The notes under the pieces: model-generated
Seen by the model: only the letters and a program-made list of their open reading frames with translations
Told to the model about the DNA's origin: nothing
The model's database searches: none
Shown: in pieces, positions 1 to 54,730 of the stretch
Position numbering within the stretch: the stretch's first letter is position 1
Layout: every line of letters starts with the position of its first letter
Position numbers and translations under genes: made by a program
Virus record (IMG/VR): IMGVR_UViG_3300028883_000312
Span: 1 to 54,816 of that record
Strand: one strand, 5' to 3'
Source: a virus
Taxonomy: Duplodnaviria > Caudoviricetes
Length of the DNA stretch: 54,816 nucleotides

Positions 1-134
1 TACATTGCATCGAGTGTCTTGGACGTTGTGATGAGGGAGGTGACATGAATTCAATCTGCATCATCCCCGCGCGCGGTGGTAGTCAGCGCATCCCGGGCAA
101 GAATATCCGGGAGTTCCACGGCAAGCCCATCATT
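1..134. repeat. Terminal direct repeat copy 1 (circular-assembly overlap)
   Basis: 1-134 equals 54683-54816 except C127 vs A54809; the repeat falls inside a contiguous operon, implying a circular unit of about 54,682 bp. Confidence 0.95.
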
Positions 135-659
135 GCCTATAGCATTGAAGTGGCCAACCGTAGCGGGTTGTTCGATTTCGGTAATGTATGGGTATCCACG
201 GATAGCAGAGAGATAGCCAGCATTGCTAAAGAATATGGGGCTCATTACATGATGCGCGATGCTGAATTAGCCCTGGACTTTGTTGGGACGCAGGAGGTAA
301 TGGTAGATGCGCTGCAAACGATTCGTAAAACGATGAAGTACCAGCTTGAGTCGTTCCCGGAATATGCCTGCTGCATTTACGCGACGGCACCTATGTTGAC
401 GACGCAAGACCTGCATCGCGGACTCAAGCTGTTGAAATCCAGCCGCTCCCTGGACTATGCGTTCTCTGTCGGGACCGAGCCATTGCACGATGCCGGCATG
501 TTTTATTGGGGCAAAACCGAGGCCTTTCTGACTGGTGCGCCGCTGGTATCAGAGCGCTCCATCATGGTCCCCATCAGTTCGGATCGGGTGTGTGATATCA
601 ATACTGAAGAGGATTTTTTAAGGGCAGAAAGAATGTATTTGGCATTACGGGGAAAATGA
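45..659 (+). CDS. pseF: CMP-nonulosonic (pseudaminic) acid synthetase / cytidylyltransferase
   Basis: IIPARGGSQRIPGKNI, WVSTD, CCIYATAP, HDAGMFYWG and DINTEED motifs of the NeuA/PseF family; GGAGG RBS. Confidence 0.9.
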   Translation: MNSICIIPARGGSQRIPGKNIREFHGKPIIAYSIEVANRSGLFDFGNVWVSTDSREIASIAKEYGAHYMMRDAELALDFVGTQEVMVDALQTIRKTMKYQLESFPEYACCIYATAPMLTTQDLHRGLKLLKSSRSLDYAFSVGTEPLHDAGMFYWGKTEAFLTGAPLVSERSIMVPISSDRVCDINTEEDFLRAERMYLALRGK

Positions 660-883
660 TGGATGTAAGATATATTAGTGATTATCCAGAGATGGAATTA
701 AAAATATGGGAAATCACAGGATTTCGCTGTGGCCATAGGATTGCTGTAGCGTTTCCAAAAAGAGAGACAAGAGAATATATTGAGAAAATAATGGTAGCCT
801 GCCCATACTGCGATGATAATTTTGATTTTAATTTGGGTACTACAACTGCCAATGGTTGGGTGCTAGTAGAGAGGAAACATTAA
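656..883 (+). CDS. Hypothetical protein, possible Zn-ribbon (CGH...CPYC), AT-rich insert in the pse operon
   Basis: ATGA/TAATG overlaps with both neighbours; visibly AT-rich. Confidence 0.55.
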   Translation: MMDVRYISDYPEMELKIWEITGFRCGHRIAVAFPKRETREYIEKIMVACPYCDDNFDFNLGTTTANGWVLVERKH

Positions 884-1482
884 TGACAACAGAACAGGAG
901 CAATTTTGGAAAGGCGAATTTGGAAATTCCTACGCAAAAAGGAATTATGGCATGACACCAAACAATATCGCCTTTTTCGCCAGGGCACTGCAGCGTGCAG
1001 GGGCCATAAACAGCGTCATTGAGTTCGGTGCTGGCACTGGGCAAAACCTTGAAGCATTGTCTCGCCTGTATTCTTATCCTCAAGAGATGATCGGGGTAGA
1101 GATCAACGAACAGGCCGCCATGCAGAATAAGATAGGCAAGATACTGCGCATGTCTGCCCTGGACTACAGTCCTGCTGAGTATGGCAAAGCAGACTTGGTG
1201 CTGACCAAAGGGTTCCTGATACACCTCCCGCCTGATGATTTACCAGATATGTATGAGGTACTGTACGGGAGCACGCGCCGCTATATCCTGGTGTGCGAGT
1301 ACTACAATCCGACGCCTGTGGAGGTGGACTACCGCGGCCACAAAAATAAACTGTGGAAACGGGACTTTGCCGGCGATCTCATGTACCGGTTCCCAGACCT
1401 GTGCCTGGTGGATTACGGGTTCGTGTATCACCGGGGCGCCTTCCCGCAGGATGATTTGACGTGGTTTCTATTGGAGAAATGA
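883..1482 (+). CDS. Pseudaminic acid biosynthesis-associated SAM-dependent methyltransferase
   Basis: TEQEQFWKGEFGNSY, EFGAGTG (SAM motif I), KGFLIH, EYYNPTPVEVDYRGH, KRDFAG and FPQDDLTWFLLEK are typical of the Pse-associated methylase family; start placed at ATG 883 after GAGGA. Confidence 0.85.
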   Translation: MTTEQEQFWKGEFGNSYAKRNYGMTPNNIAFFARALQRAGAINSVIEFGAGTGQNLEALSRLYSYPQEMIGVEINEQAAMQNKIGKILRMSALDYSPAEYGKADLVLTKGFLIHLPPDDLPDMYEVLYGSTRRYILVCEYYNPTPVEVDYRGHKNKLWKRDFAGDLMYRFPDLCLVDYGFVYHRGAFPQDDLTWFLLEK

Positions 1483-2591
1483 CTATGAACCGCTGCAGCA
1501 AGTGCCTGATCCCCGATACCCGCCCTGATACTGCGTTTGTCGATGGTGTGTGCTTAGCGTGTCTCGCCTATCAAAAGCGGCCTGCCATTGAATGGGAGAT
1601 ACGGCGAAAGGAACTGAATTTGCTGCTGGAGAATCACACCAATAACGGCACGGGATTCGATTGTATTGTACCAAGCTCCGGGGGCAAGGATTCAACCTAT
1701 CAAGTCCTGACACTGATTGAGCTGGGGGCCAAGCCCTTAGTCGTGACAGCATCCACTTGCCATCTGACTCCCCTGGGCAGGGCCAACATCGACAATCTCA
1801 AGCGCTATGCCACGACAATAGAGGTCACGCCGAACACCGAGGTCCGTGCCAAGTTGAATCGGCTGGCGCTGACGATGGTAGGCGACGTGAGCTGGCCAGA
1901 ACACGCATCCATCTTTACAACCCCGTTTCGAGTAGCGATACAAACAGGTATCCCCCTGATCTTCTATGGCGAGAATCCGCAAAACCAGTACGGCGGACCG
2001 ATGGCGAGCGTCGATGCCAGGGAGATGACGCAGCGATGGGTCACGGAGTTCGGCGGGTTCCTGGGGCTACGTGCCGATGACTTCGTGGGCATGGAGGGTA
2101 TTACCCAGGATGACATGAACGACTACCGACTGCCGCCAGCAACTGATGTTATCCGTAACAAAATAGAGGCTCACTTCCTCGGACAGTACCTGCCCTGGGA
2201 CTCCGAGCGCAATGCCAGGGTCGCACAGGACCATGGGCTCCGCTGCCAGAAACCGAGCATGGCCAATTACTGGGCGTGTGAAAACCTAGACAATGCCCAG
2301 ACTGGACTGCATGACCATGTGATGTACCGCAAGTACGGCTATGGACGCATGGCGGCACAAGTCTCCGTGGACATCCGCAAGGGTTTGATCGACCGGGAGA
2401 CCGCACTGGGACTGGTGAATGGTTGCGATGGTCTATTCCCCACCACGTATGCCGGCGTGGACCTATCGGAAGTGTTGGACCGGATAGGCATGACCAAGGC
2501 CGAGCTGATCGATGTGTTGGATCAGTTTACCAACTGGAGTCTATTTGATGGTGAGAAAGATCACAGACCGCTGTTAAAGGAGGACGCATGA
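1479..2591 (+). CDS. N-acetyl sugar amidotransferase (WbuX/PseA family, acetamidino formation)
   Basis: CxxC...PDTRP...GVCxAC N-terminus, PP-loop SGGKDS, YGEN, KYGYGR. Confidence 0.88.
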   Translation: MTMNRCSKCLIPDTRPDTAFVDGVCLACLAYQKRPAIEWEIRRKELNLLLENHTNNGTGFDCIVPSSGGKDSTYQVLTLIELGAKPLVVTASTCHLTPLGRANIDNLKRYATTIEVTPNTEVRAKLNRLALTMVGDVSWPEHASIFTTPFRVAIQTGIPLIFYGENPQNQYGGPMASVDAREMTQRWVTEFGGFLGLRADDFVGMEGITQDDMNDYRLPPATDVIRNKIEAHFLGQYLPWDSERNARVAQDHGLRCQKPSMANYWACENLDNAQTGLHDHVMYRKYGYGRMAAQVSVDIRKGLIDRETALGLVNGCDGLFPTTYAGVDLSEVLDRIGMTKAELIDVLDQFTNWSLFDGEKDHRPLLKEDA

Positions 2592-3343
2592 GCCTAGCTT
2601 ACCGCATCATCCCAACATTACTCTGTCGAGGCTCATCCCTTTACAAAGGCGAGCGCTTTGATTCCTGGCGCGAAGTCGGCCATGCCATGCAGTCTGTCCG
2701 AGTCCACCAAGCCAGGGGTGTCGATGAGCTGATACTGCTGGACATCGGCGCCACACCGGAAAGGCGGGAGCCTGACTATGAGATGGTCAAGCGCCTGTCT
2801 GAGGAGTGTTTCATGCCCCTGACTGTGGGTGGTGGAGTGAGCAAGGTGGAGCATGTGGACAAATTGCTGAGAGCGGGTGCGGATAAGGTGGCGATATGCA
2901 CGGCTGCAGCGAGAAATTTAGTGCTTATTAACGAGATTTCAAGCAAGTTTGGGGGACAGTGCCTTGTAGTTGCCATAGACGTGAAAGGTAGGAAGGTGGC
3001 AACGCATTGTGGCGGCACACTGCTGGATACTTGTCCACTTGCTGGGATTGTAAGACTGGCACAAGAGGCGGCGTATCATGGCGCCGGTGAAATCCTACTG
3101 ACCAGCATAGACCGCGACGGCACTCTCCAAGGCTATGACCTGGATCTGATTCGGGAAGTCTCCCAGGCAGTCAATATCCCTGTGATCGCATCGGGCGGTT
3201 GTGGGACGTACCAGCATATGTATGAAGCCATCCAGGCGGGTGCCTCGGCAGTCGCCGCGGGGGCCATGTTCCAGTTTACTGACGCTACGCCAAAAGGCGC
3301 AGCCAACTATCTCGCAGGCCAGGGGATGGAGGCGCGGGTGTGA
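2588..3343 (+). CDS. HisF-like cyclase (HisF2/WbuZ type, partner of the amidotransferase)
   Basis: RIIPTLL, GVDELILLDI, ECFMPLTVGGG, GADKV, GAGEILLTSIDRDGT, IPVIASGG; adjacent to the WbuX-like gene. Confidence 0.88.
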   Translation: MSLAYRIIPTLLCRGSSLYKGERFDSWREVGHAMQSVRVHQARGVDELILLDIGATPERREPDYEMVKRLSEECFMPLTVGGGVSKVEHVDKLLRAGADKVAICTAAARNLVLINEISSKFGGQCLVVAIDVKGRKVATHCGGTLLDTCPLAGIVRLAQEAAYHGAGEILLTSIDRDGTLQGYDLDLIREVSQAVNIPVIASGGCGTYQHMYEAIQAGASAVAAGAMFQFTDATPKGAANYLAGQGMEARV

Positions 3344-3789
3344 GTGAGGTGGAACTGGTCAATGTCTATGATGTACAGGATTCTCCAGTTTTGTTGTATC
3401 GCTTGCTCCAAGAGCGATCGACCGAGGATGATCCCTATATCAATATCAGTCATCGTAAGTTGCCGACGTGGCGCGAGCACCTTAAATTTTTTGACTCGAA
3501 GCCCTATAGGCGTTGGTACTTGATACAGACTCTTGGGGAAAGATATGCAGGGACGTGTTACCTGACCAGACAGAATGAAATCGGCATTGTCCTGTTCCGC
3601 GAGCACCGAGGGAACGGCTACGGACTGCATGCGGTGAATAAACTGATTACTGAGCACAAGCCATTGAAGGCGATACCTGGTAAACGTTCTGGGCAGTTCA
3701 TCGCCAACATTAATCCGAACAATCAGCGCTCCATTCGGATATTCCAGCGGCTGGGGTTTACGCATATTCAGAACACGTATGAACTATAG
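3340..3789 (+). CDS. pseH: GNAT N-acetyltransferase (PseH-like)
   Basis: HRGNGYG acetyl-CoA motif and NPNNQRSIRIFQRLGF C-terminal GNAT motif; PTWREHLKF resembles PseH; lies before pseI. Confidence 0.7.
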   Translation: MSEVELVNVYDVQDSPVLLYRLLQERSTEDDPYINISHRKLPTWREHLKFFDSKPYRRWYLIQTLGERYAGTCYLTRQNEIGIVLFREHRGNGYGLHAVNKLITEHKPLKAIPGKRSGQFIANINPNNQRSIRIFQRLGFTHIQNTYEL

Positions 3790-3804
3790 TTAGGGAGTGA
3801 AACC

Positions 3805-4788
3805 ATGAGACCCCATATCATAGCCGAGCTATCCGCCAACCACTTGGGTTCCTTTAAAAGAGCGAGGAAGCTCATTGAGGTAGCGGCAGCGTGTGGTGCA
3901 GATGCGATAAAATTGCAAACGTATGACCACAGCGAAATGGTGGCCGGCGATTATGTGATTGAATCCGGTCCCTGGGCGGGGCAGTCACTGCTCAACCTGT
4001 ACGCAGAAGCACAGACCCCCTGGGAATGGCACAAAGAACTGTTTGATTATGCCAAAAGCCTGGGGATCTATGCCTTTTCCTCCCCTTTTTCCAAGAAAGC
4101 CGTGGACTTCCTTGAGACCCTGGACTGTCCAGCCTACAAGATTGCCTCGTTTGAGCTGGTGGATATACCGCTGATTGAATATTGTGCGTCTACAGGCAAG
4201 CCTTTGATATTGTCCACGGGGATGGCTTATCTTAGTGAGGTTATTTATGCGGTAGTTGCTGCAGGGGTAGCAGGATGTACTGATATTACCCTGCTTAAAT
4301 GCACCTCTGGTTATCCCTCAACTAATGCTGATGCCAATTTATTGGGTTTGGATACGCTCAAGGGATACGGTAAGATAGGGGTCTCAGATCACACGATTGG
4401 GAGTACTGTGCCAGTGGTTGCAACGGCCCTGGGCGCCACGATGATCGAGAAGCACTTGACCCTCTCCCGTGCAGACGGTGGACCCGATGCCTTTTTCAGC
4501 TCCGAACCCGATGAATTTAAACAGATGGTCGCGGACGTATACCAAGCCAGCCAAGCCCTGGGCCAGCCCGATATTGCTCTAAGGGTCAGCGAGCACCCAC
4601 AAAAGGCATTGCGCCGATCCCTGTATTTCAATAAATCCATGAGCAAGGGGTATCAGCCACGCGAGACTGATTTTAAAACGGCACGTCCAGCCAAAGGCCT
4701 GCCTCCGAAATACTTACACGATATCCTCCACAAAACACTGAGAAAGAGCGTGAGAGCCAATGAACCAGTGACATGGGAGTGCTTTTGA
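3805..4788 (+). CDS. pseI: Pseudaminic acid synthase (NeuB family, with C-terminal AFP/SAF-like domain)
   Basis: IIAELSANHLG, GADAIKLQTY, TPWEWH, YKIASFE, LSTGM, LLKCTSGYP, SDHT, IEKH, GGPDAFFS, RRSLY. Confidence 0.92.
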   Translation: MRPHIIAELSANHLGSFKRARKLIEVAAACGADAIKLQTYDHSEMVAGDYVIESGPWAGQSLLNLYAEAQTPWEWHKELFDYAKSLGIYAFSSPFSKKAVDFLETLDCPAYKIASFELVDIPLIEYCASTGKPLILSTGMAYLSEVIYAVVAAGVAGCTDITLLKCTSGYPSTNADANLLGLDTLKGYGKIGVSDHTIGSTVPVVATALGATMIEKHLTLSRADGGPDAFFSSEPDEFKQMVADVYQASQALGQPDIALRVSEHPQKALRRSLYFNKSMSKGYQPRETDFKTARPAKGLPPKYLHDILHKTLRKSVRANEPVTWECF

Positions 4789-4819: not shown

Positions 4820-4847
4820 TTGACATTGTAACCGGGTTACGTATAAT
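4820..4847 (+). promoter_or_regulatory. Sigma70-type promoter with an operator palindrome in the spacer
   Basis: TTGACA(4820-25)-16 bp-TATAAT(4842-47); GTAACC-G-GGTTAC at 4828-4840. Confidence 0.75.
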
Positions 4848-5799: not shown

Positions 5800-6315
5800 A
5801 TGACAGAGAAAACCAAGCGAAAAGTAGGACGGCCCTCGAAGTTTGACCCTGTGTTCTGCGAGCAGGTAGTGAAGCTATGCAGGCTGGGGGCAAAGGACGA
5901 AGAGATCGCCGATTTCTTTCACGTCACAGTAGCAACATTAAATACATGGAAATTAAAAGACCCTGTATTTCTAGAGGCCTTAAAAGAGGGCAAGAAAGAA
6001 GCAGATGCTAATGTAGCGAATAGCTTATATCACCGAGCGATTGGCTTTGAGCATGAAGATACCCACATCTCGAATTACCAGGGTGAAATCACAAAAACTC
6101 CCGTTACAAAACGATACCCACCTGATACCACTGCCTGCATATTCTGGTTAAAGAACCGGGATAAAGAGAATTGGAGAGATGTGCGAAGCAACGAACATAC
6201 GGGCAAAGATGGTGGACCGATAGAGACAAAAGAGGTGGATGAATTTGACGCGGCACGTCGCATGCTGTTCCTCTTCGAGAGGGGGACCAGAGCAAAAGAC
6301 GAGGAAATGCACTGA
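5800..6315 (+). CDS. terS: Terminase small subunit
   Basis: GRPSKF, EIADFFHVTVATLNTWK HTH, PPDTTACIFWLKNR, EHTGKDGGPI. Confidence 0.85.
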   Translation: MTEKTKRKVGRPSKFDPVFCEQVVKLCRLGAKDEEIADFFHVTVATLNTWKLKDPVFLEALKEGKKEADANVANSLYHRAIGFEHEDTHISNYQGEITKTPVTKRYPPDTTACIFWLKNRDKENWRDVRSNEHTGKDGGPIETKEVDEFDAARRMLFLFERGTRAKDEEMH

Positions 6316-6455: not shown

Positions 6456-6914
6456 ATGGCATACCGGAACAATATCACGACATCCAAGCACGGTCGCAGA
6501 CTGGGCCTGGAACTGATGTCAACAGCGAAGTCAGGCGGTTCCCGCGGTCCGCAAGAGTACTTGGTGGGCCCGGAAGCTTTACGCGGCGCAGTTACCACGT
6601 CAGAGAGTACGGCAACCAATCTGCACCCGTTCGGTGTCAGCAAGCTGCTGTCCAGCTCAGCCGCATCGAGCCAGGTTTACACCATCGATCCACCGATCCC
6701 CGGTGTGATGAAGGTTATTGTGAATTCCACGGACTCGGTGTCCTATGTGAAAACTGCGAATAGCGAAACCATTGTCAGTACCAAGGGCTCGACTCACACG
6801 GTCATGGCCTTACCAGTCGGTGGTGGCGCCGTGTTTATGATGGGCTACACCACAGCGCAATGGGCAATCTTCCAGTCCACGGCAGCGGGTATTGCACTGA
6901 CGACATCCACTTAA
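6456..6914 (+). CDS. Ser/Thr-rich putative virion (head decoration-like) protein
   Basis: Strong AGGAGG RBS; about 26% S+T by my count; small-residue composition; located in the head module. Confidence 0.7.
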   Translation: MAYRNNITTSKHGRRLGLELMSTAKSGGSRGPQEYLVGPEALRGAVTTSESTATNLHPFGVSKLLSSSAASSQVYTIDPPIPGVMKVIVNSTDSVSYVKTANSETIVSTKGSTHTVMALPVGGGAVFMMGYTTAQWAIFQSTAAGIALTTST

Positions 6915-6924: not shown

Positions 6925-8157
6925 ATGACGCTAAAGATCGCGCTAGTAGGTTCTGCCCCGTCATCCGCTGGTCTGGCGCCGTATCACAGCTCAGAGTGGC
7001 AAATCTGGGGGTGTTCCCCTGGGCTGTACGGTGTCGCGCCGCGCACGGATGCGTGGTTTGAGATACATCGCTATGAGCCGGGACAACCCTGGTTCAGTCC
7101 AGAGTATCAACAGTTCCTCGCTAATTACCCTGGTCCGGTGTACATGGCACGTCAAGAGCCGAGTATCCCTCACTGTATAGTGCCGGATAAAGAGGCATTA
7201 GTAGCGAAATATGGCCCGTATTTCTTCACCTCGAGCCTGGCCTGGATGTTCGCCATGGCCATGGAGGCCGGTGCCACATCGATAGGCCTATGGGGTGTGG
7301 ACATGGCAGCGGATGAGGAGTATGGACTGCAACGCCCTGCCCTGCATTACTTCGCACAGATAGCACAAGCACGGGGTATTGAGGTCGGTGTGCCGCCTGA
7401 GTCTGACCTGCTTGTTCCTCCCGCCTTATACGGTTTCTGTGAGTACGATCACCACCATATCAAGCTACTGGCCAGACAGCGTGAGCTGGAGGACCGATTG
7501 CGAGCGGTGCAAGCCGAACGCCATAACAAAGAGACCGAGGAGCACTTTGTCCTGGGCGCATTGAGTGACCTGCGCTACCAGCAAAACACCTGGCTCAATG
7601 GTGCGGACAAGACCCATACGGCGCCGGCAGGGGCGCAGGAGTTGGAGCGTCAGCCTTCTGATAAGTCCAAGACAGTCACTAGGCTGGGGGATTATAATCA
7701 CTTGCCTGAGATGGTTCCCCCCGGTGGCGCCATCTGGGTAGACGATGAGGGCCATCCAATGACAGCAGCAGGGGAAGCTGCATTTATAGAGCGCCTTAAA
7801 ACAGCTAGGGATAAGCTTGATGCTGCGCCATATCCTGATCCTGAATTTGAGGCGGATGGTGTGGACAAGCACCCATACCCAGCCATGACTACCCCTCCGT
7901 CAACTGTCACCCTGGACGAGATGAATAAGGCATTGTTCAATGTGGACGATGCTGGCAGGAACATGACAGCTACAGAGGTGAAAGAAAAGACAGAGGAATA
8001 CTTTAGGCGATCACGAAACGATGGACTAAATCTAGAAACAGGTGGCCTTACTAAAGAGGAACTACAGGCAAATCATGACGCGCTAACTGACACTTCTGTC
8101 CTAGGCCCAACTGTTAGGGTCAAAGGCAACGGCAAGGATCATGTCAGCGAGCCTTGA
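6925..8157 (+). CDS. Putative CMP-nonulosonic acid transferase (sialyltransferase/GT42/Maf-like N-terminal domain, coiled coil, disordered tail)
   Basis: KIALVGSAPS resembles the GT42/Maf (I/V)xGxGPS motif; FTSSLAWMFAMAMEAGATSIGLWGVDM resembles TSGxxxxxxAxxxGxxxIxLxGxD; judged by eye only. Confidence 0.6.
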   Translation: MTLKIALVGSAPSSAGLAPYHSSEWQIWGCSPGLYGVAPRTDAWFEIHRYEPGQPWFSPEYQQFLANYPGPVYMARQEPSIPHCIVPDKEALVAKYGPYFFTSSLAWMFAMAMEAGATSIGLWGVDMAADEEYGLQRPALHYFAQIAQARGIEVGVPPESDLLVPPALYGFCEYDHHHIKLLARQRELEDRLRAVQAERHNKETEEHFVLGALSDLRYQQNTWLNGADKTHTAPAGAQELERQPSDKSKTVTRLGDYNHLPEMVPPGGAIWVDDEGHPMTAAGEAAFIERLKTARDKLDAAPYPDPEFEADGVDKHPYPAMTTPPSTVTLDEMNKALFNVDDAGRNMTATEVKEKTEEYFRRSRNDGLNLETGGLTKEELQANHDALTDTSVLGPTVRVKGNGKDHVSEP

Positions 8158-9748
8158 TGAAATAGTCTCCCGCTTACGGGACAAGCCAGACGCTGAACGC
8201 CTGGCCGTGGTTAATCATGCCCTGGAGCAGACCAAGGACTATGTGTGGGTGCCCAATCCTGGACCACAGACTGAGGCCTATTTCAGCAAAGCTGACATAC
8301 TGCTGTATGGCGGCGAGCCTGGTGGGGGTAAGAGTTCGCTTGTCCTGGGCCTCGCCTTCACTCAGCATCGCCGGTCGCTGATCCTTCGCCGGCAATACAC
8401 GGATCTTGACCACTTGCTTGAGGAAGCACAGAAGTTTAACGGTGGCAAAGACGGGTATAACGGGTCTCCTCCTCCCAAGCTGAAACGGCCTGATGGACGG
8501 GTCATGGACTTTGGTGCCGCGGCCCGGGTCGGTGACGAGCAGCATTGGATGGGGCGACCGCATGACTTTATCGGCGTGGATGAGGCTACTCAGTTCGCTG
8601 AGCTGCAAATCCGCTTCCTGATGGGCTGGTGCCGTAGCGCCAAGGAGAGCAACGAAAAGCCACAACGGACGCGCGTTGTCTTGGCCACGAATCCCCCGCT
8701 GACAGCAGAAGGCTTGTGGATCACCGAGATGTTTGCCCCGTGGCTGGATGATAAATTCCCTGATCCCGCCAAGCCCGGTGAACTGCGTTATGCGATTGTC
8801 CCAGAGGATAAAGAGGTCTGGGTGGACGGTCCTGATCCGGTGTGGGATGAGGGGAAAAACAAATACCTGCAGCCGAAATCCTATACCTATGTCCCTGCCT
8901 CATTGAACGACAACCCTTTCCTCACTGGTACAGGGTACGAGAAGGACTTGGATGCACTGCCCGGTGAGATACACAGCGTCCTGATGGGCGGGTTCAAAAA
9001 TACCTTCCGTGATGCGCCTGACCAGATTATCCCAACAGAATGGGTGAGACTCGCACAGCAGCGCTGGCGCCCTGAACCTCCCAAAGATGTCCCGATGTGC
9101 GCCATGGGCGTGGACTGTACGGGGGGCGGTACCGACTCAATGGTCATTGCTCCCCGGTATGACGGGTGGTATGCGCCATTTATTGAGATACCGGGCAAAG
9201 AGATGCCCAGGGATGCGATTAACAAGACCACTGCCGGCCATATCGTGTCCAATCGTCGTGATTCGGCTGCGGTTGTGATCGATCTCGGTGGTGGTTACGG
9301 TAGCGGCGCGTATGAAATCCTTGTGGATAATGAGATCGAGACCATCGGCTACAAGGGTGCTGAGACCAGTACCAAGCGTAGCCGTGACGGAAAACTGAAA
9401 TTCACCAACACGCGATCAGCGGCCATCTGGTTATTTCGTGAAGCCCTGGACCCTGACCAGCCCGGGGGGTCTCCGATTGCACTGCCCCCGGACAATGAGG
9501 TGCTTGCAGATTTAACGGCCCCGACATTCAAGGTGAAATCCAACGGTATCCAGGCGGAATCAAAAGAGGATGTGTGCGACAGGCTGGGACGGTCAACGAA
9601 TAAGGGCGATGCGGTGATACAGGCATGGCATTACGGACCCAAGGAAACTACGCATGCCCTGGAGTTCCTGAACCGCAAAGAGCAGAAGGCACTGCGGGGC
9701 CAAGCACCAAAGATCATCATGGGGCGTCAACACGCCAAGAGGAGGTAG
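8141..9748 (+). CDS. terL: Terminase large subunit
   Basis: PGPQ Q-motif, Walker A YGGEPGGGKS, Walker B FIGVDEA, ATNP coupling motif, nuclease MGVD and LGRSTNKGDA. Confidence 0.92.
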   Translation: MSASLDEIVSRLRDKPDAERLAVVNHALEQTKDYVWVPNPGPQTEAYFSKADILLYGGEPGGGKSSLVLGLAFTQHRRSLILRRQYTDLDHLLEEAQKFNGGKDGYNGSPPPKLKRPDGRVMDFGAAARVGDEQHWMGRPHDFIGVDEATQFAELQIRFLMGWCRSAKESNEKPQRTRVVLATNPPLTAEGLWITEMFAPWLDDKFPDPAKPGELRYAIVPEDKEVWVDGPDPVWDEGKNKYLQPKSYTYVPASLNDNPFLTGTGYEKDLDALPGEIHSVLMGGFKNTFRDAPDQIIPTEWVRLAQQRWRPEPPKDVPMCAMGVDCTGGGTDSMVIAPRYDGWYAPFIEIPGKEMPRDAINKTTAGHIVSNRRDSAAVVIDLGGGYGSGAYEILVDNEIETIGYKGAETSTKRSRDGKLKFTNTRSAAIWLFREALDPDQPGGSPIALPPDNEVLADLTAPTFKVKSNGIQAESKEDVCDRLGRSTNKGDAVIQAWHYGPKETTHALEFLNRKEQKALRGQAPKIIMGRQHAKRR

Positions 9749-9750: not shown

Positions 9751-10041
9751 ATGTCAAGTTTAGTATCAGGAGGCGGTCTTTTCAGCAAGAGGGGCAGAAG
9801 GAATTTACAGAATATCCTCTCCGGCAATCCCGTGCTGGCGCCATTGAACACGATCATGGGCGGGGACGAGCCCGAGACCATTACTCCTCCCGCCGCGGAG
9901 CCCACGCCATTGATGCCGATACCCGATGAGGCTGCGGCAAAGATCAAGGCACAGAAGGGGCAAGTCAGCCGGCGCCGTCGCAAGCTGACACGTGCTAACA
10001 CGATATTGAGCGACACATCGCAGACAGGGTTGGGCGGATGA
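9751..10041 (+). CDS. Small pre-portal virion assembly protein
   Basis: GAGGAGG RBS; Pro-rich then RRRRK...TILSD...LGG C-terminus typical of pre-portal genes of T7/BPP-1-like podophages. Confidence 0.6.
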   Translation: MSSLVSGGGLFSKRGRRNLQNILSGNPVLAPLNTIMGGDEPETITPPAAEPTPLMPIPDEAAAKIKAQKGQVSRRRRKLTRANTILSDTSQTGLGG

Positions 10042-11660
10042 ATATCAAACAGCTGATCGAACAGGTTGGCGGTCTTTTCACCAAGCGCTCCCGGTATGAG
10101 CACTTGCTGCAGGAGATCGCGGAGAATTTCTACCCTGAGCGGGCGGACTTCACTGTTATCCGCGACATCGGGGATGAGTACGCCTCCAACCTCTCATCCA
10201 GCTATCCCCTATTGGTGCGGCGTGAATTAGGCAACCAGATTGGTATGTTCCTGCGGCCTACGGATAAAGCGTGGTTCCATATGGGCCTGGTTGACGAAGA
10301 GCGCGAGGACAATGACTCCAAGCGCTGGATGCAGTGGGCAACCAACACCATGCGCCGCGCTATGTACGATAGACGGACGCAATTCACCCGTGCAACCAAG
10401 GAAGGGGACCATGACTATGCGGCATTCGGACAGAACGTGGTGTCCTGTCGGCTGAACCGTGACGCCGATGGATTGCTATACCGTGACTGGCATCTACGTG
10501 ACTGCGCTTGGACGGAGAACGAGGAAGGTGGGTTCGCTATCTTTGCGCGCAAATGGAAGCCCCAGGCTCATGAGCTGTACCGCTTGTTCGGGGACCGTAT
10601 TGGGCAAAAGGCTGTCGATAGGGCGACCAGGGAGCCGTTCAGCACGATTACCTGCTATCACATCATGATCGAGGCTCATCTGTATGACGATGACGCCAAG
10701 GGGCGTCCGTATTGGTCGATCTACTACAACCTGGACGATGAGCAGGAGATTGAGATCGTACCCCAGTGGATCAATGAATATAACATCGCACGGTGGCAGA
10801 CAGTCTCTGGATCACAATACGCCTACTCCCCTGCAGCAATAGCAGGGCTCCCGGACGCCAGGCTGATCCAGGCCATGACCTATACCCTGCTTGAGGCGGG
10901 TGAGAAGTTCACCAACCCGCCCATGATCGCAACCCAGAACGTGGTGAAATCGGACATTTCGATCTATGCCGGCGGCGTAACCTGGGTGGACCAGGAATAT
11001 GATGAGCGCTTGGGCCAGGCCTTGAGACCCATAACCCAGGACTACAAAGGCATGCCGATGGGTGTTGAGATGTTGCGTGACACACGCACCATGCTTACTG
11101 ATGCGTTCTACCTGAACAAACTGGCCTTGCCTCAGCGCGAGGCGGACATGACCGCGTATGAGGTCGGGCAACGGGTCCAGGAGTACATCCGCGGTGCGCT
11201 GCCAATCTTTGAGCCCATGGAGATGGACTACAACGGTGGTCTGTGCGAACTGACATTCGAGACCATGTTGCGGGCGGGGGCGTTTGGTGATCCCAGGAAC
11301 ATGCCCAGAAACCTGCAGGGCGCTGAGTTCCATTTCCGTTTCGAGTCTCCCCTGCATGATGCGATTGAGCAGCAGAAGGGACAGAAGTGGCTGGAAGCCA
11401 AGGCGATTATCGCCGAGTCGGTGGCCCTTGACCCGAGCACGGCAGGACTCCTTGATGCCAAAGAGGCCTTGCGCGATGTCCTTGAAGGAATCGGCACACC
11501 TGCCAAGTGGATGCGCAGCAAGCAAGCGGTTACTGCGTATGAGCAACGAATCCGGGAACAGCAAGAGAGCGAGCAAATGCTGGCCGAGATGGAGCAGGGT
11601 GCTGGTATTACCGAAACATTAGCCAAGGCCAATACTGAGTTGGCCAGGACGGGCACGTGA
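10038..11660 (+). CDS. Portal (head-to-tail connector), T7 gp8/BPP-1 type
   Basis: 540 aa; WF..., ARW...SGSQYAYSP, MTAYEVGQRVQE, FESPL motifs; synteny. Confidence 0.9.
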   Translation: MNIKQLIEQVGGLFTKRSRYEHLLQEIAENFYPERADFTVIRDIGDEYASNLSSSYPLLVRRELGNQIGMFLRPTDKAWFHMGLVDEEREDNDSKRWMQWATNTMRRAMYDRRTQFTRATKEGDHDYAAFGQNVVSCRLNRDADGLLYRDWHLRDCAWTENEEGGFAIFARKWKPQAHELYRLFGDRIGQKAVDRATREPFSTITCYHIMIEAHLYDDDAKGRPYWSIYYNLDDEQEIEIVPQWINEYNIARWQTVSGSQYAYSPAAIAGLPDARLIQAMTYTLLEAGEKFTNPPMIATQNVVKSDISIYAGGVTWVDQEYDERLGQALRPITQDYKGMPMGVEMLRDTRTMLTDAFYLNKLALPQREADMTAYEVGQRVQEYIRGALPIFEPMEMDYNGGLCELTFETMLRAGAFGDPRNMPRNLQGAEFHFRFESPLHDAIEQQKGQKWLEAKAIIAESVALDPSTAGLLDAKEALRDVLEGIGTPAKWMRSKQAVTAYEQRIREQQESEQMLAEMEQGAGITETLAKANTELARTGT

Positions 11661-14427: not shown

Positions 14428-14754
14428 ATGGCTTACAGTGGATCAACAGCATCGTCATCGGTTGCCAATCCTCCGTCACTGATCGGCGGCCCTCTGACAC
14501 GGGGCTCCAGCTCAGGACCAAACCCGCGTGGTGGACAAACGTGGCACTACACGTCCACGGACGGGTCAACCGTCACCTCCGCGTCTGCCTATTTTACCGA
14601 TGCTTGGTATTTGGGTATGCGTCCGAGTGACGTGATTTTTGGCACCTACCAAAGTTCGGTCGGTTCTACTGACCGGTATTCTTATCGATTGATTGTGACG
14701 TCTGTCACGACCGCTGGCGCAGTGTGTTCGACTGCCCAGATGTCAACAGGCTAA
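14428..14754 (+). CDS. Ser/Thr-rich head decoration/cement-like protein
   Basis: Directly after the capsid gene and before its terminator; AAGGAGG RBS; YFTDA..LGM..SDV; about 33% S+T. Confidence 0.7.
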   Translation: MAYSGSTASSSVANPPSLIGGPLTRGSSSGPNPRGGQTWHYTSTDGSTVTSASAYFTDAWYLGMRPSDVIFGTYQSSVGSTDRYSYRLIVTSVTTAGAVCSTAQMSTG

Positions 14755-19435: not shown

Positions 19436-21192
19436 TGCCGAAACTACCCGACGCACAATCGTTAGGACAGCGGCCAACCCCTTCGCCGGCCATGGCCAAT
19501 GCCCGCTATCAGCCTACAACTGGGGCGGAGGATGCCCAGGCGCGGGCTCTGATGGCGTTCGGTGATGATATGGGGCAGGTCAGTGACCAACTGTTCCGTG
19601 CGCAGGAGAAAATAGACACGCTGAGGGCGGAGGAGGCCTTTACCGAGCTACGCAATCAGCAGCTGGACATGACGAACGGGGAGGAGGGCTTTGCCCAGCG
19701 CCGAGGCCGGGATGCCCTGGGTAAACCGTTTATCGATGATTATGTGCAACGCTTCGACACGGCGACAGAGACCATCGGCAATAAGCTGGATGATAGAGCA
19801 CGTAAGCTGTTCAATAAGCGCTCACAAGTCGCAAAATTGCAGTACCGCCAAGACCTGTTGGGGCACTCTGCGAAAGAGGCCGATACCTATGCCCGGCAAG
19901 TGTTCGAGTCCTCTCTGGATAGCGAGATCAAAAACGCCTCCAACCACTGGCAGAATCCCAAGGATGTCGCCTTGTCTCTTGAGCGTATCAAGTTCGTGAT
20001 CAGTGAAGAAGCTGACCGTCTGAACCTGCCGGCCAAGAAAACCAAGGCCTTGAGGGATGATGCGATCTCGAAAGTCCATGCCAATGTGATCGAACGCATG
20101 CTGATCAATGACCAGGATTTGGCGGCATCCGTGTACTACCAGGGGAACAAGAAGCAGGTCATGGGCGATGACGCGGCGCCGATTGAAAAGGCCTTGGCCG
20201 AGGGCAGTCTACGTGGAGAGTCCCGGCGCAGAGCGGATGAGATTTTTGGCAAGTACCAGACCGAGGGGCAGGCCTTGGCCGAAGTGGACAAGATCAAAGA
20301 CCCGAAAGTAGCGGACGCCACTCGTCAACGGGTCAAGCAGAAGTATGCCGACGATCAAAATGAGTACAAGCTGTCCCTGGAAAAAGCGTACACCGATGCC
20401 CTACAGACGGTAGAGGCGTCGGGATCAACGGACAATATCCCTCCCAACAAGTGGGTCAATGTGCTGACCGAGGACCATCGAAAAGCCTTGGAGAAGCGCG
20501 CGGCGGAGATACGTGAGGGGAAAGAGCCTGAGCTAAACAAGGACAAGTGGATGGCCTTCCTGGACCTACCGACGAATAAGTTAGCTGCCCTGAACCAGGA
20601 TGAGGTAGACGTGAATTACTTAATGCACTTTGACCGTGATCGCCGGATTGAAGCGTTAAACCGCTGGCAGTCCGCGCGCAAGTCCTTGCAAGGCGATCCC
20701 ATGGCGAAAGTCGAGCATGCCAGCACGATACAGTTCGATGACATTGTGGACGGCCTGGCCCGACAGATGAATGTCCTGCCCAAAGGGAAGTCAAAAGCCA
20801 AGCTCTCGCAGGAGCAGTGGACGCGCTACAACGCGCTACGCACGGGAGCTGATACAGAGATCAAGCAGTTTGAGCGTAACGAGCTGGGCGGGAAACGCAA
20901 AGCGACCAGTGAAGAGATGACTAAGATCGTCAACCGGGTCATGGCCAAGCAGGTATTTGTCGATGAGTGGGGAACAGACCCACAACGGCCAGTCGTGACC
21001 CTGACAGAGGAGGAGCGTGGTCAAGCGTACATCCCGATCAAAAAGATACCAGCCGAGTCGGTGCTGGCGCTGCGTCGCAAGGCTGAGGAGATGGGTATTA
21101 CCATCAACCAAAGGCAGATTGAGAGAGCGTATGCGGCGGCGGTCATGGACTCGCCGGATGAAGTGATTATTGGCATTTTGGAGGGCAGATAA
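19435..21192 (+). CDS. Ejection protein (gp15-like)
   Basis: Helical 585 aa, MPKLP start; synteny. Confidence 0.65.
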   Translation: MPKLPDAQSLGQRPTPSPAMANARYQPTTGAEDAQARALMAFGDDMGQVSDQLFRAQEKIDTLRAEEAFTELRNQQLDMTNGEEGFAQRRGRDALGKPFIDDYVQRFDTATETIGNKLDDRARKLFNKRSQVAKLQYRQDLLGHSAKEADTYARQVFESSLDSEIKNASNHWQNPKDVALSLERIKFVISEEADRLNLPAKKTKALRDDAISKVHANVIERMLINDQDLAASVYYQGNKKQVMGDDAAPIEKALAEGSLRGESRRRADEIFGKYQTEGQALAEVDKIKDPKVADATRQRVKQKYADDQNEYKLSLEKAYTDALQTVEASGSTDNIPPNKWVNVLTEDHRKALEKRAAEIREGKEPELNKDKWMAFLDLPTNKLAALNQDEVDVNYLMHFDRDRRIEALNRWQSARKSLQGDPMAKVEHASTIQFDDIVDGLARQMNVLPKGKSKAKLSQEQWTRYNALRTGADTEIKQFERNELGGKRKATSEEMTKIVNRVMAKQVFVDEWGTDPQRPVVTLTEEERGQAYIPIKKIPAESVLALRRKAEEMGITINQRQIERAYAAAVMDSPDEVIIGILEGR

Positions 21193-36994: not shown

Positions 36995-38227
36995 ATGATT
37001 CACATCTGCAAGCCCTACCGGCTCAATGGGTATCCTGACGCGGTTAATGGACTTCGCGACCTTCCTACTTTATTGCCTGGCGACACGATTGAAATACACG
37101 GTATCCATGACGCTGGTTACACGGACAGACAATTAATCATCGATGCCGCTGAAATTACAGTTTACTTCATGCCAGGCAGTCAATTATTGCCCTGCGCCTC
37201 ACGGCTTGAAGGCCCGGACGGATGGGTAGGGCCAGATAGTAACGGGGTCTATCATCGGCCCTATAAGGGCAATACATTAAACCAATGTTTTGAGGATGGG
37301 AGGAGGCTACAAAAAGGATTCGGCCAGACAAACTGGCAACCCGGAACCTTTAACCAGGTAGGTAATATCTTATACATCAAACCTTATGATGGAACCTTAG
37401 AGCATGTTTGGCACACGAACGCCAAAGTAGGCATACAAGTATTATCCCCTAATGTCACATTACACTCCCCCCATATCAAAGGCTCCCGCTATGGGATTAT
37501 TGTAAATGCTCCACATTGCACTATCCATAACCCTATCTGCGAAAATCACGGTAACATGGGCATTAGCTGGCAAAGAGCGCATTATCTGAAAATATTTAAC
37601 GCTCAAATATCCCATTGCAAAAACGGGCTATATGGGAACACGCCCAAGATTACAGATCATAGTGATTCTGTATTGATCGACAATGCTCTAGTCACTGACA
37701 ACGACCCGGAACAATATTACGAACCGGTAGACGCTACAACCAATCAGGGAGACAACCACCCTTTTGCGGTACAAGGTGGGAGCAACGGAGTGTATGACGT
37801 TACTGTCCAAAGGACAGGCTGGGGAGTGGGGCTGTATCAGTTTTTAAACCAACCGTTTATTGGTAATGAGTTTACCTTAGACATTTCCAACGTAGGAATT
37901 ATCCACCCCACAATACAGCGAGAAGCCAGAGCCTTGTCTTTCTCAGGTGATCGGGACATTGAAGGACATCTCCATCACAGCAATAGCGCTATGGTGAGGA
38001 TTGACCAAAGCCAAATCGGTATCTATATGAAAGCCAGGGACACAAAAGGACTCCCGCCCTGGGATTTGGACGCTACCATTTTCCGCTGTGATACAGGATT
38101 GTTAGTGCCTTTAGGAGCAGCCGCACTTAATGCCAATCTGACAACCAGCCAAGTCAGGCGTCCGTATGAGTTAGTCGGTGATGGCGGATCAGATAAAGTC
38201 AATATTACTTTTCAAGGGAGCGCTTGA
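36995..38227 (+). CDS. Pectin-lyase-like beta-helix protein (tailspike/depolymerase-like)
   Basis: LLPGDTIEIHG start; YGIIV..HCTIHNP.CENHGNMGI repeats. Confidence 0.55.
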   Translation: MIHICKPYRLNGYPDAVNGLRDLPTLLPGDTIEIHGIHDAGYTDRQLIIDAAEITVYFMPGSQLLPCASRLEGPDGWVGPDSNGVYHRPYKGNTLNQCFEDGRRLQKGFGQTNWQPGTFNQVGNILYIKPYDGTLEHVWHTNAKVGIQVLSPNVTLHSPHIKGSRYGIIVNAPHCTIHNPICENHGNMGISWQRAHYLKIFNAQISHCKNGLYGNTPKITDHSDSVLIDNALVTDNDPEQYYEPVDATTNQGDNHPFAVQGGSNGVYDVTVQRTGWGVGLYQFLNQPFIGNEFTLDISNVGIIHPTIQREARALSFSGDRDIEGHLHHSNSAMVRIDQSQIGIYMKARDTKGLPPWDLDATIFRCDTGLLVPLGAAALNANLTTSQVRRPYELVGDGGSDKVNITFQGSA

Positions 38228-52624: not shown

Positions 52625-52862
52625 AGGCTCTTGTAACCCCATAGTCGGCGGCATGGTCATAGGGACTATCTTTACTGCGTTGATTGCAACCATAGTCGTA
52701 TTGATCTGGTTCCGCCCCGCCATTCCTACCACTAACGAACTGGATGTGGCTATCGTTAAGGCCGTGTTTGCGGAAACGAAGGACTTTTGCGCAAAGATCA
52801 ACGCTAAAAGGTTCAAGGGCCAGGCATCGGGTTTACACATAACAGCAGGGTGTAGCAAATGA
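52614..52862 (+). CDS. Single-TM protein
   Basis: GGAG RBS; hydrophobic N-terminus; ATGA overlap with pseB. Confidence 0.55.
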   Translation: MEIKGSCNPIVGGMVIGTIFTALIATIVVLIWFRPAIPTTNELDVAIVKAVFAETKDFCAKINAKRFKGQASGLHITAGCSK

Positions 52863-53788
52863 ATAACATTTTAGTTACTGGCGCCACAGGATTTTTCGGC
52901 AAGGCCTTTATCCGCTTTGTACTGGACATGGGCGTGCAGCGGGTCTGTGTCTACAGCCGAGATGAGTGGAAGCAGGCCCAGATGCGTGAGGAGTTTGATA
53001 ATGACGATAGGCTCAGATGGTTCATAGGCGATGTTCGTGACTATCAGAGACTGCACCGAGCAATGTCTGGAGTGGATACCGTGATTCATGCGGCTGCACT
53101 AAAGCGAATTGAGGTGGGTGAATATAATCCTGACGAGCTAGTCAAGACTAATGTCAATGGGGCCATGAACGTGATTGAGGCGGCTCTCAGCACCAAGGTC
53201 AAGCATGTGGTGGCGCTGTCTACGGACAAGGCGGCCTCTCCGTACAATGCCTATGGTGCATCCAAACTCTTGTCTGAAAAGCTGTTCCTTGCCGCTAATA
53301 ACATAGCCGGGCAAGGTGGGCCGACTTTCGCCGTAACACGCTATGGCAATGTGGCGGGGAGTACTGGGTCGGTGATCCCGCTATGGCGTAGTCTGCAAGA
53401 GGCTGGTGCGCCCATTGTGGTGACGGACCCAGACTGTACCCGTTTCTGGATGACAAGCGAGGAAGCAGTTAGGTTGGTGTTTTGGGCGGTCGGACGCCGA
53501 GACATGGTGGTTCCAGACCTGCCAGCATATCGGATTGAGGATTTGATTGTTGCCATGGGTGAGAAGCTGAGCGATGCCGTGAAGGTAGACATGCGGCCAG
53601 GGGAGAAAAAGCATGAAGCCATGCTCAGCGAGCATGAGTGTTCAGAGTTTTACAAGTCGGATATATATGGGTACTGGGTGCGCGGTGCCTTTGAGTTCGG
53701 TGACTGGCCACTGGATAAGCCACTGACCAGCGACATAGCGCGGCGCATGAGTATTGAGGAGCTGAGGAGAGGATTGGATGAACTGTGA
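52859..53788 (+). CDS. pseB: UDP-GlcNAc 4,6-dehydratase (inverting, PseB/FlaA1 type)
   Basis: TGATGFFG, SRDEWKQ, IGDVRD, HAAALK..EYNP, LSTDKA, YGASK, RYGNV.GS.GSV, TRFW, RPGEKKHE. Confidence 0.92.
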   Translation: MNNILVTGATGFFGKAFIRFVLDMGVQRVCVYSRDEWKQAQMREEFDNDDRLRWFIGDVRDYQRLHRAMSGVDTVIHAAALKRIEVGEYNPDELVKTNVNGAMNVIEAALSTKVKHVVALSTDKAASPYNAYGASKLLSEKLFLAANNIAGQGGPTFAVTRYGNVAGSTGSVIPLWRSLQEAGAPIVVTDPDCTRFWMTSEEAVRLVFWAVGRRDMVVPDLPAYRIEDLIVAMGEKLSDAVKVDMRPGEKKHEAMLSEHECSEFYKSDIYGYWVRGAFEFGDWPLDKPLTSDIARRMSIEELRRGLDEL

Positions 53789-54416
53789 CCCCTATCAAGT
53801 AGTGCGTGACTTCGAGGCCGCCCTATGCGCCTACACCGGGGCGCTATATGCAGTGACTACGACCAGCTGCACTATGGCGCTGTTGTTGGCGTGTGCATGG
53901 CATCTTGATAGAGGGCCGACTGGTAACGCCATGAGGTTGTGGTCTCAACGTGAGCGCATTAGCATCCCGAAAAGGACCTACATCAGCGTACCGATGTCAA
54001 TCATACACGCAGGCGGGTGGCCGATATTCAAGGATGAGGAGTGGGAGGGAGAGTATAAACTAGAACCGTTGCCAGTCTGGGACTGCGCTAGGTGGTTGCG
54101 CGGAGATATGTATCGTGCAGGCCAATTTATGTGCTTGAGTTTTCATTGGACGAAGCAACTGTCCTTGGGCCAGGGCGGAGCGATTCTCCACAATGACCCA
54201 GAAGCCGATAAATGGTTACGCCGCGCACGCTTCGACGGTCGCACAGAGGGATTGGCGCCAAAGGCTGACACCTTCGACATGATAGGACACCATTGCTACA
54301 TGAGCCCTCGCGATGCGGCAGAAGGATTGAGCCGACTGGCGACATTGCCCAAGCACAATGACCCTTTACCTAATGACGATTACCCAGACCTTTCCAAAAT
54401 TGAGGTGTTTCGATGA
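53778..54416 (+). CDS. pseC: Compact DegT/DnrJ-family PLP aminotransferase (PseC-like)
   Basis: FEAALC.YTGA.YAV..TSCTMAL, WDCA, CLSFHWTKQL..GQGGAI; only 212 aa. Confidence 0.7.
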   Translation: MNCDPYQVVRDFEAALCAYTGALYAVTTTSCTMALLLACAWHLDRGPTGNAMRLWSQRERISIPKRTYISVPMSIIHAGGWPIFKDEEWEGEYKLEPLPVWDCARWLRGDMYRAGQFMCLSFHWTKQLSLGQGGAILHNDPEADKWLRRARFDGRTEGLAPKADTFDMIGHHCYMSPRDAAEGLSRLATLPKHNDPLPNDDYPDLSKIEVFR

Positions 54417-54730
54417 ATAAAGACGAACCCATCACTTGGGCAATCAAAGACCATGGCGGCAAGGTAGTCGTGGAATTCTCAAGGCAAACCCGCAATGTCG
54501 TGATGGACCCTGAAAACGCCAGGGCTATCGGTGAGGGCATAGCGAAAGCTGCCTATGCCGCACAGTATGGCGCAGCCCCGGAGGAAGGGCGCAACGTTAT
54601 CAGCGAGCAAGTGATGAGCAAGCTAATGACCCGCCTGACACTGGTAATACGGCAGATGCAGGATACAAACAAGGCACCAGCCTACATTGCATCGAGTGTC
54701 TTGGACGTTGTGATGAGGGAGGTGACATGA
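54413..54730 (+). CDS. Hypothetical protein inside the pse operon
   Basis: ATGA overlaps with pseC and pseF; GAGGTG RBS. Confidence 0.65.
   Translation: MNKDEPITWAIKDHGGKVVVEFSRQTRNVVMDPENARAIGEGIAKAAYAAQYGAAPEEGRNVISEQVMSKLMTRLTLVIRQMQDTNKAPAYIASSVLDVVMREVT

Follow-up and report, generated by a model that had tools for sequence, protein, structure and literature searches.

The DNA analysed here (the window), 54,816 bp in length, makes up the linear IMG/VR virus record IMGVR_UViG_3300028883_000312, with an estimated completeness of 90%. Its source is an uncultured podophage of about 55 kb that carries a pseudaminic acid (Pse) gene cluster, and it represents an uncultured clade, because the portal proteins of the nearest cultured phages are only 23-25% identical. 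In its packaging region, a gene designated X (6925..8157, + strand) takes part in the order terS - orf6456 - X - terL. The terminase small subunit gene terS (5800..6315, +) matches phrog_309 (E 9.6e-59); orf6456 (6456..6914, +) encodes 152 residues; and the terminase large subunit gene terL (8141..9748, +) matches phrog_979 (E 7.5e-28). A portal of the T7 type is encoded at 10038-11660. The ATG of X lies 10 nt past the stop codon of orf6456, preceded by a Shine-Dalgarno-like AAGGGGG stretch, and the 3' end of X overlaps the start of terL (8141) by 17 nt. Nonulosonic acids (sialic, legionaminic and pseudaminic acids) are surface sugars of bacteria and animals. We place slightly better than even confidence in the reading that X is a protein glycosyltransferase of a new family that depends on nonulosonic acids activated by cytidine monophosphate (CMP).

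As the preliminary description had it, positions 6925-8157 hold a single open reading frame (ORF) on the + strand, and the 410-residue product can be divided into an alpha/beta domain presumed to be catalytic, a long helix and a lineage-specific tail. Residues 1-175 (6925..7449, +) are modelled as a Rossmann-like alpha/beta domain of the sialyltransferase/MptE-like fold, with a predicted local distance difference test (pLDDT) score mostly above 90. Both motifs quoted in that description are present, KIALVGSAPS at 6934-6963 and FTSSLAWMFAMAMEAGATSIGLWGVDM at 7225-7305; they are far beyond chance and stand among the invariant columns of the family alignment. Within the first, the GSAPSS loop (residues 9-14, 6949..6966, +) is presumed to bind nucleotide and was aligned by hhalign to the G-G-P-S-L loop of Maf enzymes. 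The second is the FTSS...GLWGVDM block (residues 101-127, 7225..7305, +), in which S103 and D126 are near-invariant. Between the two, the EIHRYEPGQPWFS block (residues 46-58, 7060..7098, +) includes H48, the sole invariant His of the superfamily. The following loop, A129-D130...E132-Y133..Q136-R137 (7309..7335, +), has the conserved pattern EY..Q(R/K) and is a hot spot of intein insertion in homologs, and the long helix (residues 172-224, 7438..7596, +) carries the family-conserved residues R184, E187, R191, G211 and W223. The C-terminal 178 residues (7621..8154, +), which follow this helix, are lineage-specific and modelled mostly at low confidence with a few helices; they have no relative in any fetched locus (tblastn, E<=0.01) and no Pfam match. 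The highest Kyte-Doolittle mean over 19 residues in X is 1.16, which agrees with the earlier statement that a transmembrane helix is absent.

Gene context is the strongest evidence on the role of X. Among 80 IMG/VR loci found through X, terL lies 3' of X in 79, the exception being a 1.1-kb fragment, and a portal gene is present in 68. The idea that X had been inserted between terS and terL is therefore rejected, since the gene order is conserved across the clade. In six loci (L003, L004, L016, L027, L038, L064), the terL match begins 1.2-1.6 kb after X, compared with the usual 0-350 nt, which suggests an extra gene or an N-terminal intein in terL. When at least 5 kb upstream of X was available, Pse-cluster genes were found in 32 of 35 loci and PseI in 30 of 35. 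As to the three loci with no Pse match, one has PseI just beyond the fetched range, one is a 53%-complete fragment, and one is the relative G003, which is considered below.

The association extends to distant lineages. In two distant subfamilies, X lies in HK97-type modules with the order protease - major head - Ser/Thr-rich ORF - X - head-tail adaptor. Homologs at 28-41% identity to another subfamily occur in 23 metagenome loci of 5 kb or more, and in 12 of these a PseF, PseI or other Pse match stands next to X. The L120 type shows the order MuF-like minor head - CTP_transf_3 cytidylyltransferase - X (with a stop/start overlap) - P22-like coat, and L137 shows HK97 capsid - X - CTP_transf_3 - methyltransferase - NeuB; in L112 and L147, a CTP_transf_3-HAD fusion and NeuB are divergent from X. 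These three arrangements were confirmed by Pfam. In L144, the order is X - PseB - PseC - WbuX - WbuZ. A PseF- or PseI-like gene occurs no more than 7 kb from X in 19 of 22 viral and 7 of 10 metagenome rows (26/32). This count covers loci retrieved by way of X that extend 7 kb or more on each side; its rows are non-independent, some loci having two X copies. For the converse, PseI served to retrieve 80 viral loci out of 196 relatives among 2.9 million contigs; X is present in all 36 loci with a window-type terL or portal and in 4 of the 44 others. On the tree, the labels change 6 times, against a shuffled mean of 5.9; with just 6 rows scorable as negative, this comparison is uninformative. At least four different arrangements of X and CMP-nonulosonate genes thus exist across T7-like, P22-like and HK97-like head modules, and the proposed link of X to CMP-nonulosonate genes and capsid morphogenesis recurs in unrelated phage lineages.

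X itself matches no Pfam, PHROG or NCBIfam model. A word-indexed search with X gave 938 proteins at E<=0.001 among 8000 scored candidates. The best 119 non-self matches cover only residues 1-~225 of X, at 51-75% identity. Their lengths are 245-333 residues (median 274), the exceptions being two proteins of 521 and 523 residues, and no precomputed Pfam domain is attached to any of the 119. When 1.84 billion representatives were searched exhaustively by profile, there were 5,513 clusters (50% identity) at E<=0.001, 4,681 at E<=1e-10 and 2,365 at E<=1e-30, so residues 1-~225 of X are a member of a huge unnamed superfamily. The family is nearly absent from 185,579 species genomes, in which a pattern search with the clade alignment found four contigs of metagenome-assembled genomes (MAGs).

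The pattern of conservation picks out a small set of residues. A high proportion of positions never varies within the window clade, whose conserved blocks are GSAPS, CSPG, ELHRYEPGQxWFS, YFFTSS, GxxGVDMAA, EEYxxQR, GIEVGxPPESD and LYGxxExxH. The invariant columns of a 34-sequence alignment include G9, A11, P12 and S14 in the first motif and F101, S103, M108, A112, I120, L122, G124, V125, D126 and M127 in the second. In the wider superfamily (25-38% identity), H48, A112, G124, E132, Y169 and G170 are invariant, and G9, P19, W25, W28, F101, S103, D126, Y133 and Q136 are at least 90% conserved. Inteins usually sit in catalytic loops of conserved genes. Two close homologs (P0025 and P0054) contain a Cys...His-Asn|Thr intein with a LAGLIDADG-type insert right after GVDMAA, and related inteins occur in distant homologs after GVDMAHD (P0239) and after GDEY (P0235). 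Because inteins target it, the D126-E132-Q136 loop is probably functionally central. The X homolog on a Betaproteobacteria-MAG contig (L096:6556-8016) is split at the same place in the GVD loop. The inteins, with their homing-endonuclease-like inserts, interrupt X homologs at two sites that lie close together in the GVD..EY loop, and further X frames of 596-814 residues (L176, L177, L211, L229) probably bear inteins. Elsewhere, the X domain is fused to N-terminal extensions of 275 residues (P0267, 504 residues in all) and ~485 residues (L143:8546-10735, 730 residues); these extensions have no Pfam or PDB sequence match, and the fused homolog P0267 has no phmmer match in the PDB.

The gene upstream of X is a conserved partner. 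The orf6456 product contains 26% Ser+Thr, ends in TTST and is preceded by an AGGAGG ribosome-binding site; it is the sole gene with such a Ser/Thr end among 38 window genes checked. Of 73 distinct Ser/Thr-rich ORFs located just upstream of X, 65 are homologs of orf6456 (58 by phmmer and 7 by hidden Markov model), that of G003 included. The penultimate residue is Ser or Thr in 62 of these 65 homologs and the last residue in 55, and an N-terminal T-S-x-x-G-R-R-x-G block is conserved. At least three of the last four residues are Ser or Thr in the upstream ORFs of 47 of 87 loci, compared with 37 of 1,497 other ORFs there, and the upstream ORFs of two distant lineages terminate in CSTST or STSTSTSTST. 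For orf6456, the Atlas model is beta-sandwich-like, as in phage fibre and depolymerase modules, and serves as a lead only; the product is a candidate acceptor or virion-surface protein. A second Ser/Thr-rich product (33% Ser+Thr) is encoded by a 108-residue ORF right after the major capsid gene (14428-14754, +), a further candidate for a surface or decoration protein and a possible glycosylation target.

Two AlphaFold models of X were compared with known structures. The full-length model has a pLDDT of 76.8, with residues 1-120 above 90, and the domain model has a pLDDT of 89.2 and a predicted template modelling (pTM) score of 0.73; in both, a Rossmann-like alpha/beta domain is followed by a helix of ~50 residues. 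With the domain model, the top 13 Foldseek matches in the PDB are all GT42 enzymes (E 1.7e-6 to 2.4e-4, probability 1.00), among them CstII (1ro8_B; E 1.7e-6, template modelling (TM) score 0.47/0.49), a Pasteurella enzyme (9c08_A; TM 0.49/0.51) and Cst-I (2p56). GT42 also heads the ranking for the full-length model, with a similar list. Below GT42 comes thiamine pyrophosphokinase (TPK; 3lm8_A, E 2.9e-4, root-mean-square deviation (rmsd) 3.6 A), followed by human ST8SiaIII, the archaeal MptE HPPK 8sd5_C (E 1.3e-3), ST6GALNAC2 and SteA; GT29 enzymes match the domain model as well. Among viral predicted structures (BFVD), the best matches are uncharacterised phage proteins, and others are annotated as MptE-like, DUF115 or sialyltransferase. 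In these models, the fold class of X is the sialyltransferase/MptE-type Rossmann fold, and the comparison with CstII and GT29 proposed in the preliminary description yielded GT42 as the best PDB matches rather than an unrelated fold.

Membership in either named family finds less backing. At the Pfam gathering threshold of 25 bits for PF06002 (GT42), X is unmatched, as it is at E<=1 and E<=10; a PF06002 search of the whole window gave nothing at E<=10, the controls likewise being unmatched in that search. In the 34 family members, weak matches to PF01973 (Maf) occur in 7 (best E 0.049) and a weak match to PF06002 (CST-I) in 1 (E 0.41), and an Atlas lead from X to a PF01973-bearing cluster scored 0.79. 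A superfamily profile searched against the PDB placed the FTSS..GVD block locally, over 27 residues, onto residues 143-169 of the GT42 enzyme 9c08_A (E 0.64), pairing '...AlAI..g...iglwGVD...E' with 'YMCAVAIAMGYTDIYLTGIDFYQASE'. With the clade alignment profile, the PDB yielded nothing relevant, the best match being eIF-2B (E 0.49). For Maf, a reference set of 14 genuine Maf-type PF01973 domains from 14 genomes (27 positive of 300 searched) was compared by hhalign with a 191-sequence X profile as query. The score was 26.9 (P 0.0052, probability 6.9%, 145 columns); both motifs were in register, GSAPSS falling on GGPSL and FTSS..GVD opposite the G.DL ('G.DlC') block of Maf; the reversed template scored 12.2 and ten column shuffles 10.5-17.3. 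Judged by sequence comparison, the weak PF01973 and 9c08_A matches and the hhalign result are consistent with very remote homology and leave membership unestablished. Of the two-motif likeness to GT42 and Maf that had been noted by eye, the local GT42 alignment and the in-register Maf alignment stand, but no curated GT42 or Maf model matches X. Membership in GT42 or Maf is not borne out, given the missing model match, the TM-scores of 0.40-0.51 and the absence of the Maf three-domain architecture, X consisting of one alpha/beta domain and one long helix. Taken as a whole, the interpretation in the preliminary description is supported in part.

Several observations weigh against X being a CMP-nonulosonate transferase. 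The relative G003 (50,970 bp, 96% complete) shares 15 of the window's 48 ORFs, including terS, X (55% identity), terL (45%), portal (55%) and capsid (61%); it matches none of the nine Pse-cluster ORFs yet keeps X. In the complete 41-kb genome of a Microcystis phage, an X homolog of 36% identity immediately precedes terS/terL, and PseI is absent. X is therefore a core gene of the head and packaging module rather than an obligate companion of phage Pse genes. Three loci (L097, L122, L136) have no nonulosonate gene within 7 kb of X, and in 40 of the 44 PseI viral loci lacking a window-type terL or portal, no X was found in the fetched range. With respect to the partner, the upstream ORF was picked as the most Ser/Thr-rich candidate and the loci are mutually related, which biases the Ser/Thr-tail counts, and the upstream ORFs of the distant lineages show no homology to orf6456 (hmmsearch E >=0.21; hhalign probability 0.05%). 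H176 is invariant in the window clade and unconserved across the superfamily, and the GT42 catalytic His, which we take to be His188 of CstII, could not be mapped onto X. X does not match PF01973 (cut-off 34.6 bits), nothing in the window does so at E<=10, and no Maf structure is among the PDB matches listed for X; the E value of 0.64 for 9c08_A and the hhalign probability of 6.9% are weak. For the domain model, the GT42 TM-scores of 0.40-0.51 are borderline, with rmsd values of 5.7-15.9 A. Finally, TPK and MptE match nearly as well, at a lower rmsd of 3.6-5.4 A, and the fold alone therefore cannot separate a transferase from a kinase.

Two side observations belong to these Pse-less relatives. 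G003 (L083) carries sulfotransferase-family and Ig-domain genes upstream of terS (1522-2085 and 3652-4074), perhaps an alternative modification system that occupies the corresponding position. The label 'type 11 methyltransferase' on the X homolog of the Microcystis phage was rejected, since no methyltransferase family matches.

The kinase-like structural matches raise the alternative of an MptE/TPK-like pyrophosphokinase, or of some other small-molecule enzyme that depends on nucleotides and has no connection with nonulosonic acids. Its basis is the pair of Foldseek matches 3lm8_A and 8sd5_C, together with the weak PF01973 matches in 7/34 members and the 0.79 Atlas lead, and the conserved acidic residues D126 and E132 could bind metal. 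However, GT42 outranks TPK and MptE in both Foldseek searches, and no folate or thiamine genes are among the ORFs scanned. TPK has a second substrate-binding domain; in X, the alpha/beta domain is followed by a long helix and no such domain. The repeated adjacency of cytidylyltransferase and NeuB genes would also be left unexplained, and we regard this alternative as very unlikely.

The status of X as a core gene next to terL in 79 of 80 loci, retained where Pse genes are missing, would suit a non-enzymatic head-assembly or packaging factor that retains an old enzyme fold, whose long conserved helix could mediate oligomerisation or binding. Such a factor would hardly account for the near-invariant polar residues H48, S103, D126, E132, Y133 and Q136 at active-site-like loop and strand ends, for inteins in exactly that loop, or for the recurring link to CMP-sugar genes; it is highly improbable.

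The acceptor might also lie outside the virion. X could be a CMP-nonulosonate transferase acting on a host structure (flagellin, pilin, S-layer or lipopolysaccharide), for example to block superinfection. The same evidence from fold and CMP-sugar context applies to this alternative, the acceptor being an inference, and the absence of X from 40 of the 44 other PseI viral loci indicates that viral Pse pathways serve other ends too. Its location, however, is inside the head and packaging modules of at least four phage types, and X is as conserved as the portal (55% vs 55% in G003) and coupled to a conserved Ser/Thr-rich phage protein. A host target is accordingly judged unlikely.

A candidate source of the sugar donor lies in genes of the window itself. 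Its two ends together carry one Pse cluster. The first part (3..4788, +) encodes PseF, with its 5' end cut by the window edge, a Pse-associated methylase, a WbuX amidotransferase, a WbuZ/HisF-like protein, a GNAT protein and PseI, and the other end of the record (52859..54730, +) encodes PseB followed by PseC-like frames in two pieces; the presence of PseF reported earlier is thus confirmed, along with PseI and other Pse genes. The PseC-like frame consists of two overlapping ORFs at 53778-54416 and 54413-54730 (+; 212 and 105 residues), both with weak PseC matches. PseG (TIGR03590) has no match in the ~90%-complete record, nor was it seen among the Pse genes in related loci. Measured against the textbook scheme, the phage pathway therefore looks incomplete; because the record is only ~90% complete, the absence of PseG is unproven. 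In the scanned ORFs of the window, no further glycosyltransferase family turned up, and the window has only one X-family gene. The claim that X is the only plausible transferase for the CMP-sugar made by PseF is upheld in that respect, but X is also kept in relatives without Pse genes.

With PseG unmatched, X might be a step of nonulosonate biosynthesis, either a PseG replacement or an enzyme that modifies or hydrolyses the CMP-sugar. PseG is a hydrolase with a glycosyltransferase fold. Six loci of a subclade have an additional, divergent X paralog, placed between pseC and pseF; in five of them (L229:4759-5703, L214:3211-4437, L234:3478-4131, L235:3835-4554, L225:126-803) it abuts or overlaps pseF, and in the sixth (L190:2708-3580) it is ~470 nt upstream of pseF. 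This position inside the Pse cluster would suit a biosynthetic role, but the paralog also counts among the evidence for the transferase reading. X is nevertheless kept in the 96%-complete Pse-less relative and in the PseI-less Microcystis phage. Moreover, the L120 type pairs X with a cytidylyltransferase only, among head genes, which better fits a pair that activates and transfers a sugar than a uridine diphosphate-sugar hydrolase. Given also the unproven absence of PseG, a biosynthetic role is quite unlikely.

X can be compared with several known systems. GT42 (CstII/Cst-I, the Pasteurella enzyme 9c08; PF06002) gives the best structural matches and has the N-terminal G-x-x-P-S loop in common with X, and its 'S/T-S/G ... 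G-(I/V)-D' block aligns locally to X; GT42 enzymes are soluble or peripheral cytoplasmic proteins that use CMP-sugars, which fits the genomic neighbours of X. In contrast, there is no significant sequence match, the TM-scores are ~0.45-0.5, and X has its own invariant set of H48, E132-Y133 and Q136; GT42 acceptors are lipooligosaccharide glycans, whereas X lies in phage head modules. According to PMC11339370, Maf enzymes O-glycosylate Ser/Thr with CMP-activated pseudaminic acid, legionaminic acid, N-acetylneuraminic acid (Neu5Ac) or 3-deoxy-D-manno-octulosonate (Kdo), placing the nonulosonate on a structural protein before assembly, and consist of an N-terminal Rossmann-like domain, a central domain resembling Cst-II and a C-terminal helical bundle. 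The likeness of X to Maf (PF01973) lies in the weak PF01973 matches and the co-linear profile alignment given above, and in its position beside Pse, NeuB and cytidylyltransferase genes and a Ser/Thr-rich structural-type protein. It differs in being a single domain plus helix, 245-333 residues in the family against 435-1151 residues for the Maf frames found, and in being viral, in a capsid and packaging module, with a partner that is not flagellin. MptE and TPK have the same Rossmann-type core (Foldseek E 2.9e-4 to 1.3e-3, TM 0.41-0.48) but rank lower than GT42; the context of X is unrelated to cofactor synthesis, and the second substrate-binding domain is missing from X. Capsid and tail-tube proteins of mycobacteriophages are glycosylated by phage GT-A/GT-B enzymes. 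The concept of a phage-encoded transferase that decorates its own structural proteins would be the same, the acceptor of X being inferred; the mycobacteriophage enzymes are hexose-type transferases of known families, whereas X belongs to a new family, would use a phage-made nine-carbon sugar and lies in the head and packaging module.

Based on the results presented above, X would be a cytoplasmic, late-expressed glycosyltransferase. A CMP-activated nonulosonic acid would be bound at the GSAPSS loop, the FTSS motif and the end of the GVD strand, with H48, D126, E132 and Q136 as candidates for catalysis or substrate binding. The donor in this phage would be an acetamidino- and methyl-modified pseudaminic acid, supplied by the phage PseB/C/H/I/F proteins, WbuX/WbuZ and the methylase, and during head assembly X would move the sugar to Ser/Thr of a phage structural protein. 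By analogy with Maf acting on flagellin, the likeliest acceptor would be orf6456, perhaps at its [ST][ST] C-terminus. Relatives without their own Pse genes would draw on a host-made CMP-sugar, and such host-supplied donors are plausible because Maf enzymes can use CMP-Kdo and CMP-Neu5Ac if their native donor is lacking (PMC11339370). As a tentative extension, which we hold to be possible and rather doubtful, a widespread two-gene module of a sialyltransferase-fold enzyme and a small Ser/Thr-tailed beta-sandwich protein in head and packaging operons may coat phage particles with bacterial-type nonulosonic acids.

The remaining features of the window are as follows. A perfect sigma-70 consensus (TTGACA, 16 nt, TATAAT; 12/12) at 4820-4847 (+), the only such site nearby, sits immediately 3' of pseI, with the small ORFs, terS, orf6456 and X following it. 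A 3022-residue 'polyvalent' protein (21192-30260, +) contains LPD22 (residues 41-131) and an ART-PolyVal ADP-ribosyltransferase domain (residues 800-1052) and is probably an ejected internal virion protein. The tail region (33339-34670 and 36995-38227, +) encodes a PhoD-like phosphatase, whose N-terminus is fn3-like, and a beta-helix protein, and an ERF-family recombinase is encoded at 42570-43439 (-).

No description of a phage nonulosonate transferase or of the X family was found in the open-access and bioRxiv literature, and a passage on phage-borne pseI in one report lists it only as an auxiliary metabolic gene, naming no transferase (PMC6359870). If X is a transferase, phage Pse clusters would serve glycosylation of the phage's own particle, or of a host target, through a new enzyme family, and the family would offer compact (~230 residues) candidate enzymes for protein O-glycosylation with nine-carbon sugars. 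The hypothesis lends itself to direct testing, since a single 55-kb genome encodes the enzyme together with a candidate acceptor and the donor pathway. Should the coating of particles prove true, a family that counts more than 5,000 sequence clusters would gain a function, and the sugar here would be a phage-made acetamidino-pseudaminic acid, of the same kind that bacteria put on flagellin; conceivably, this would then be the first nonulosonic acid glycosylation system for a phage virion protein, a prospect that we raise with considerable reserve.

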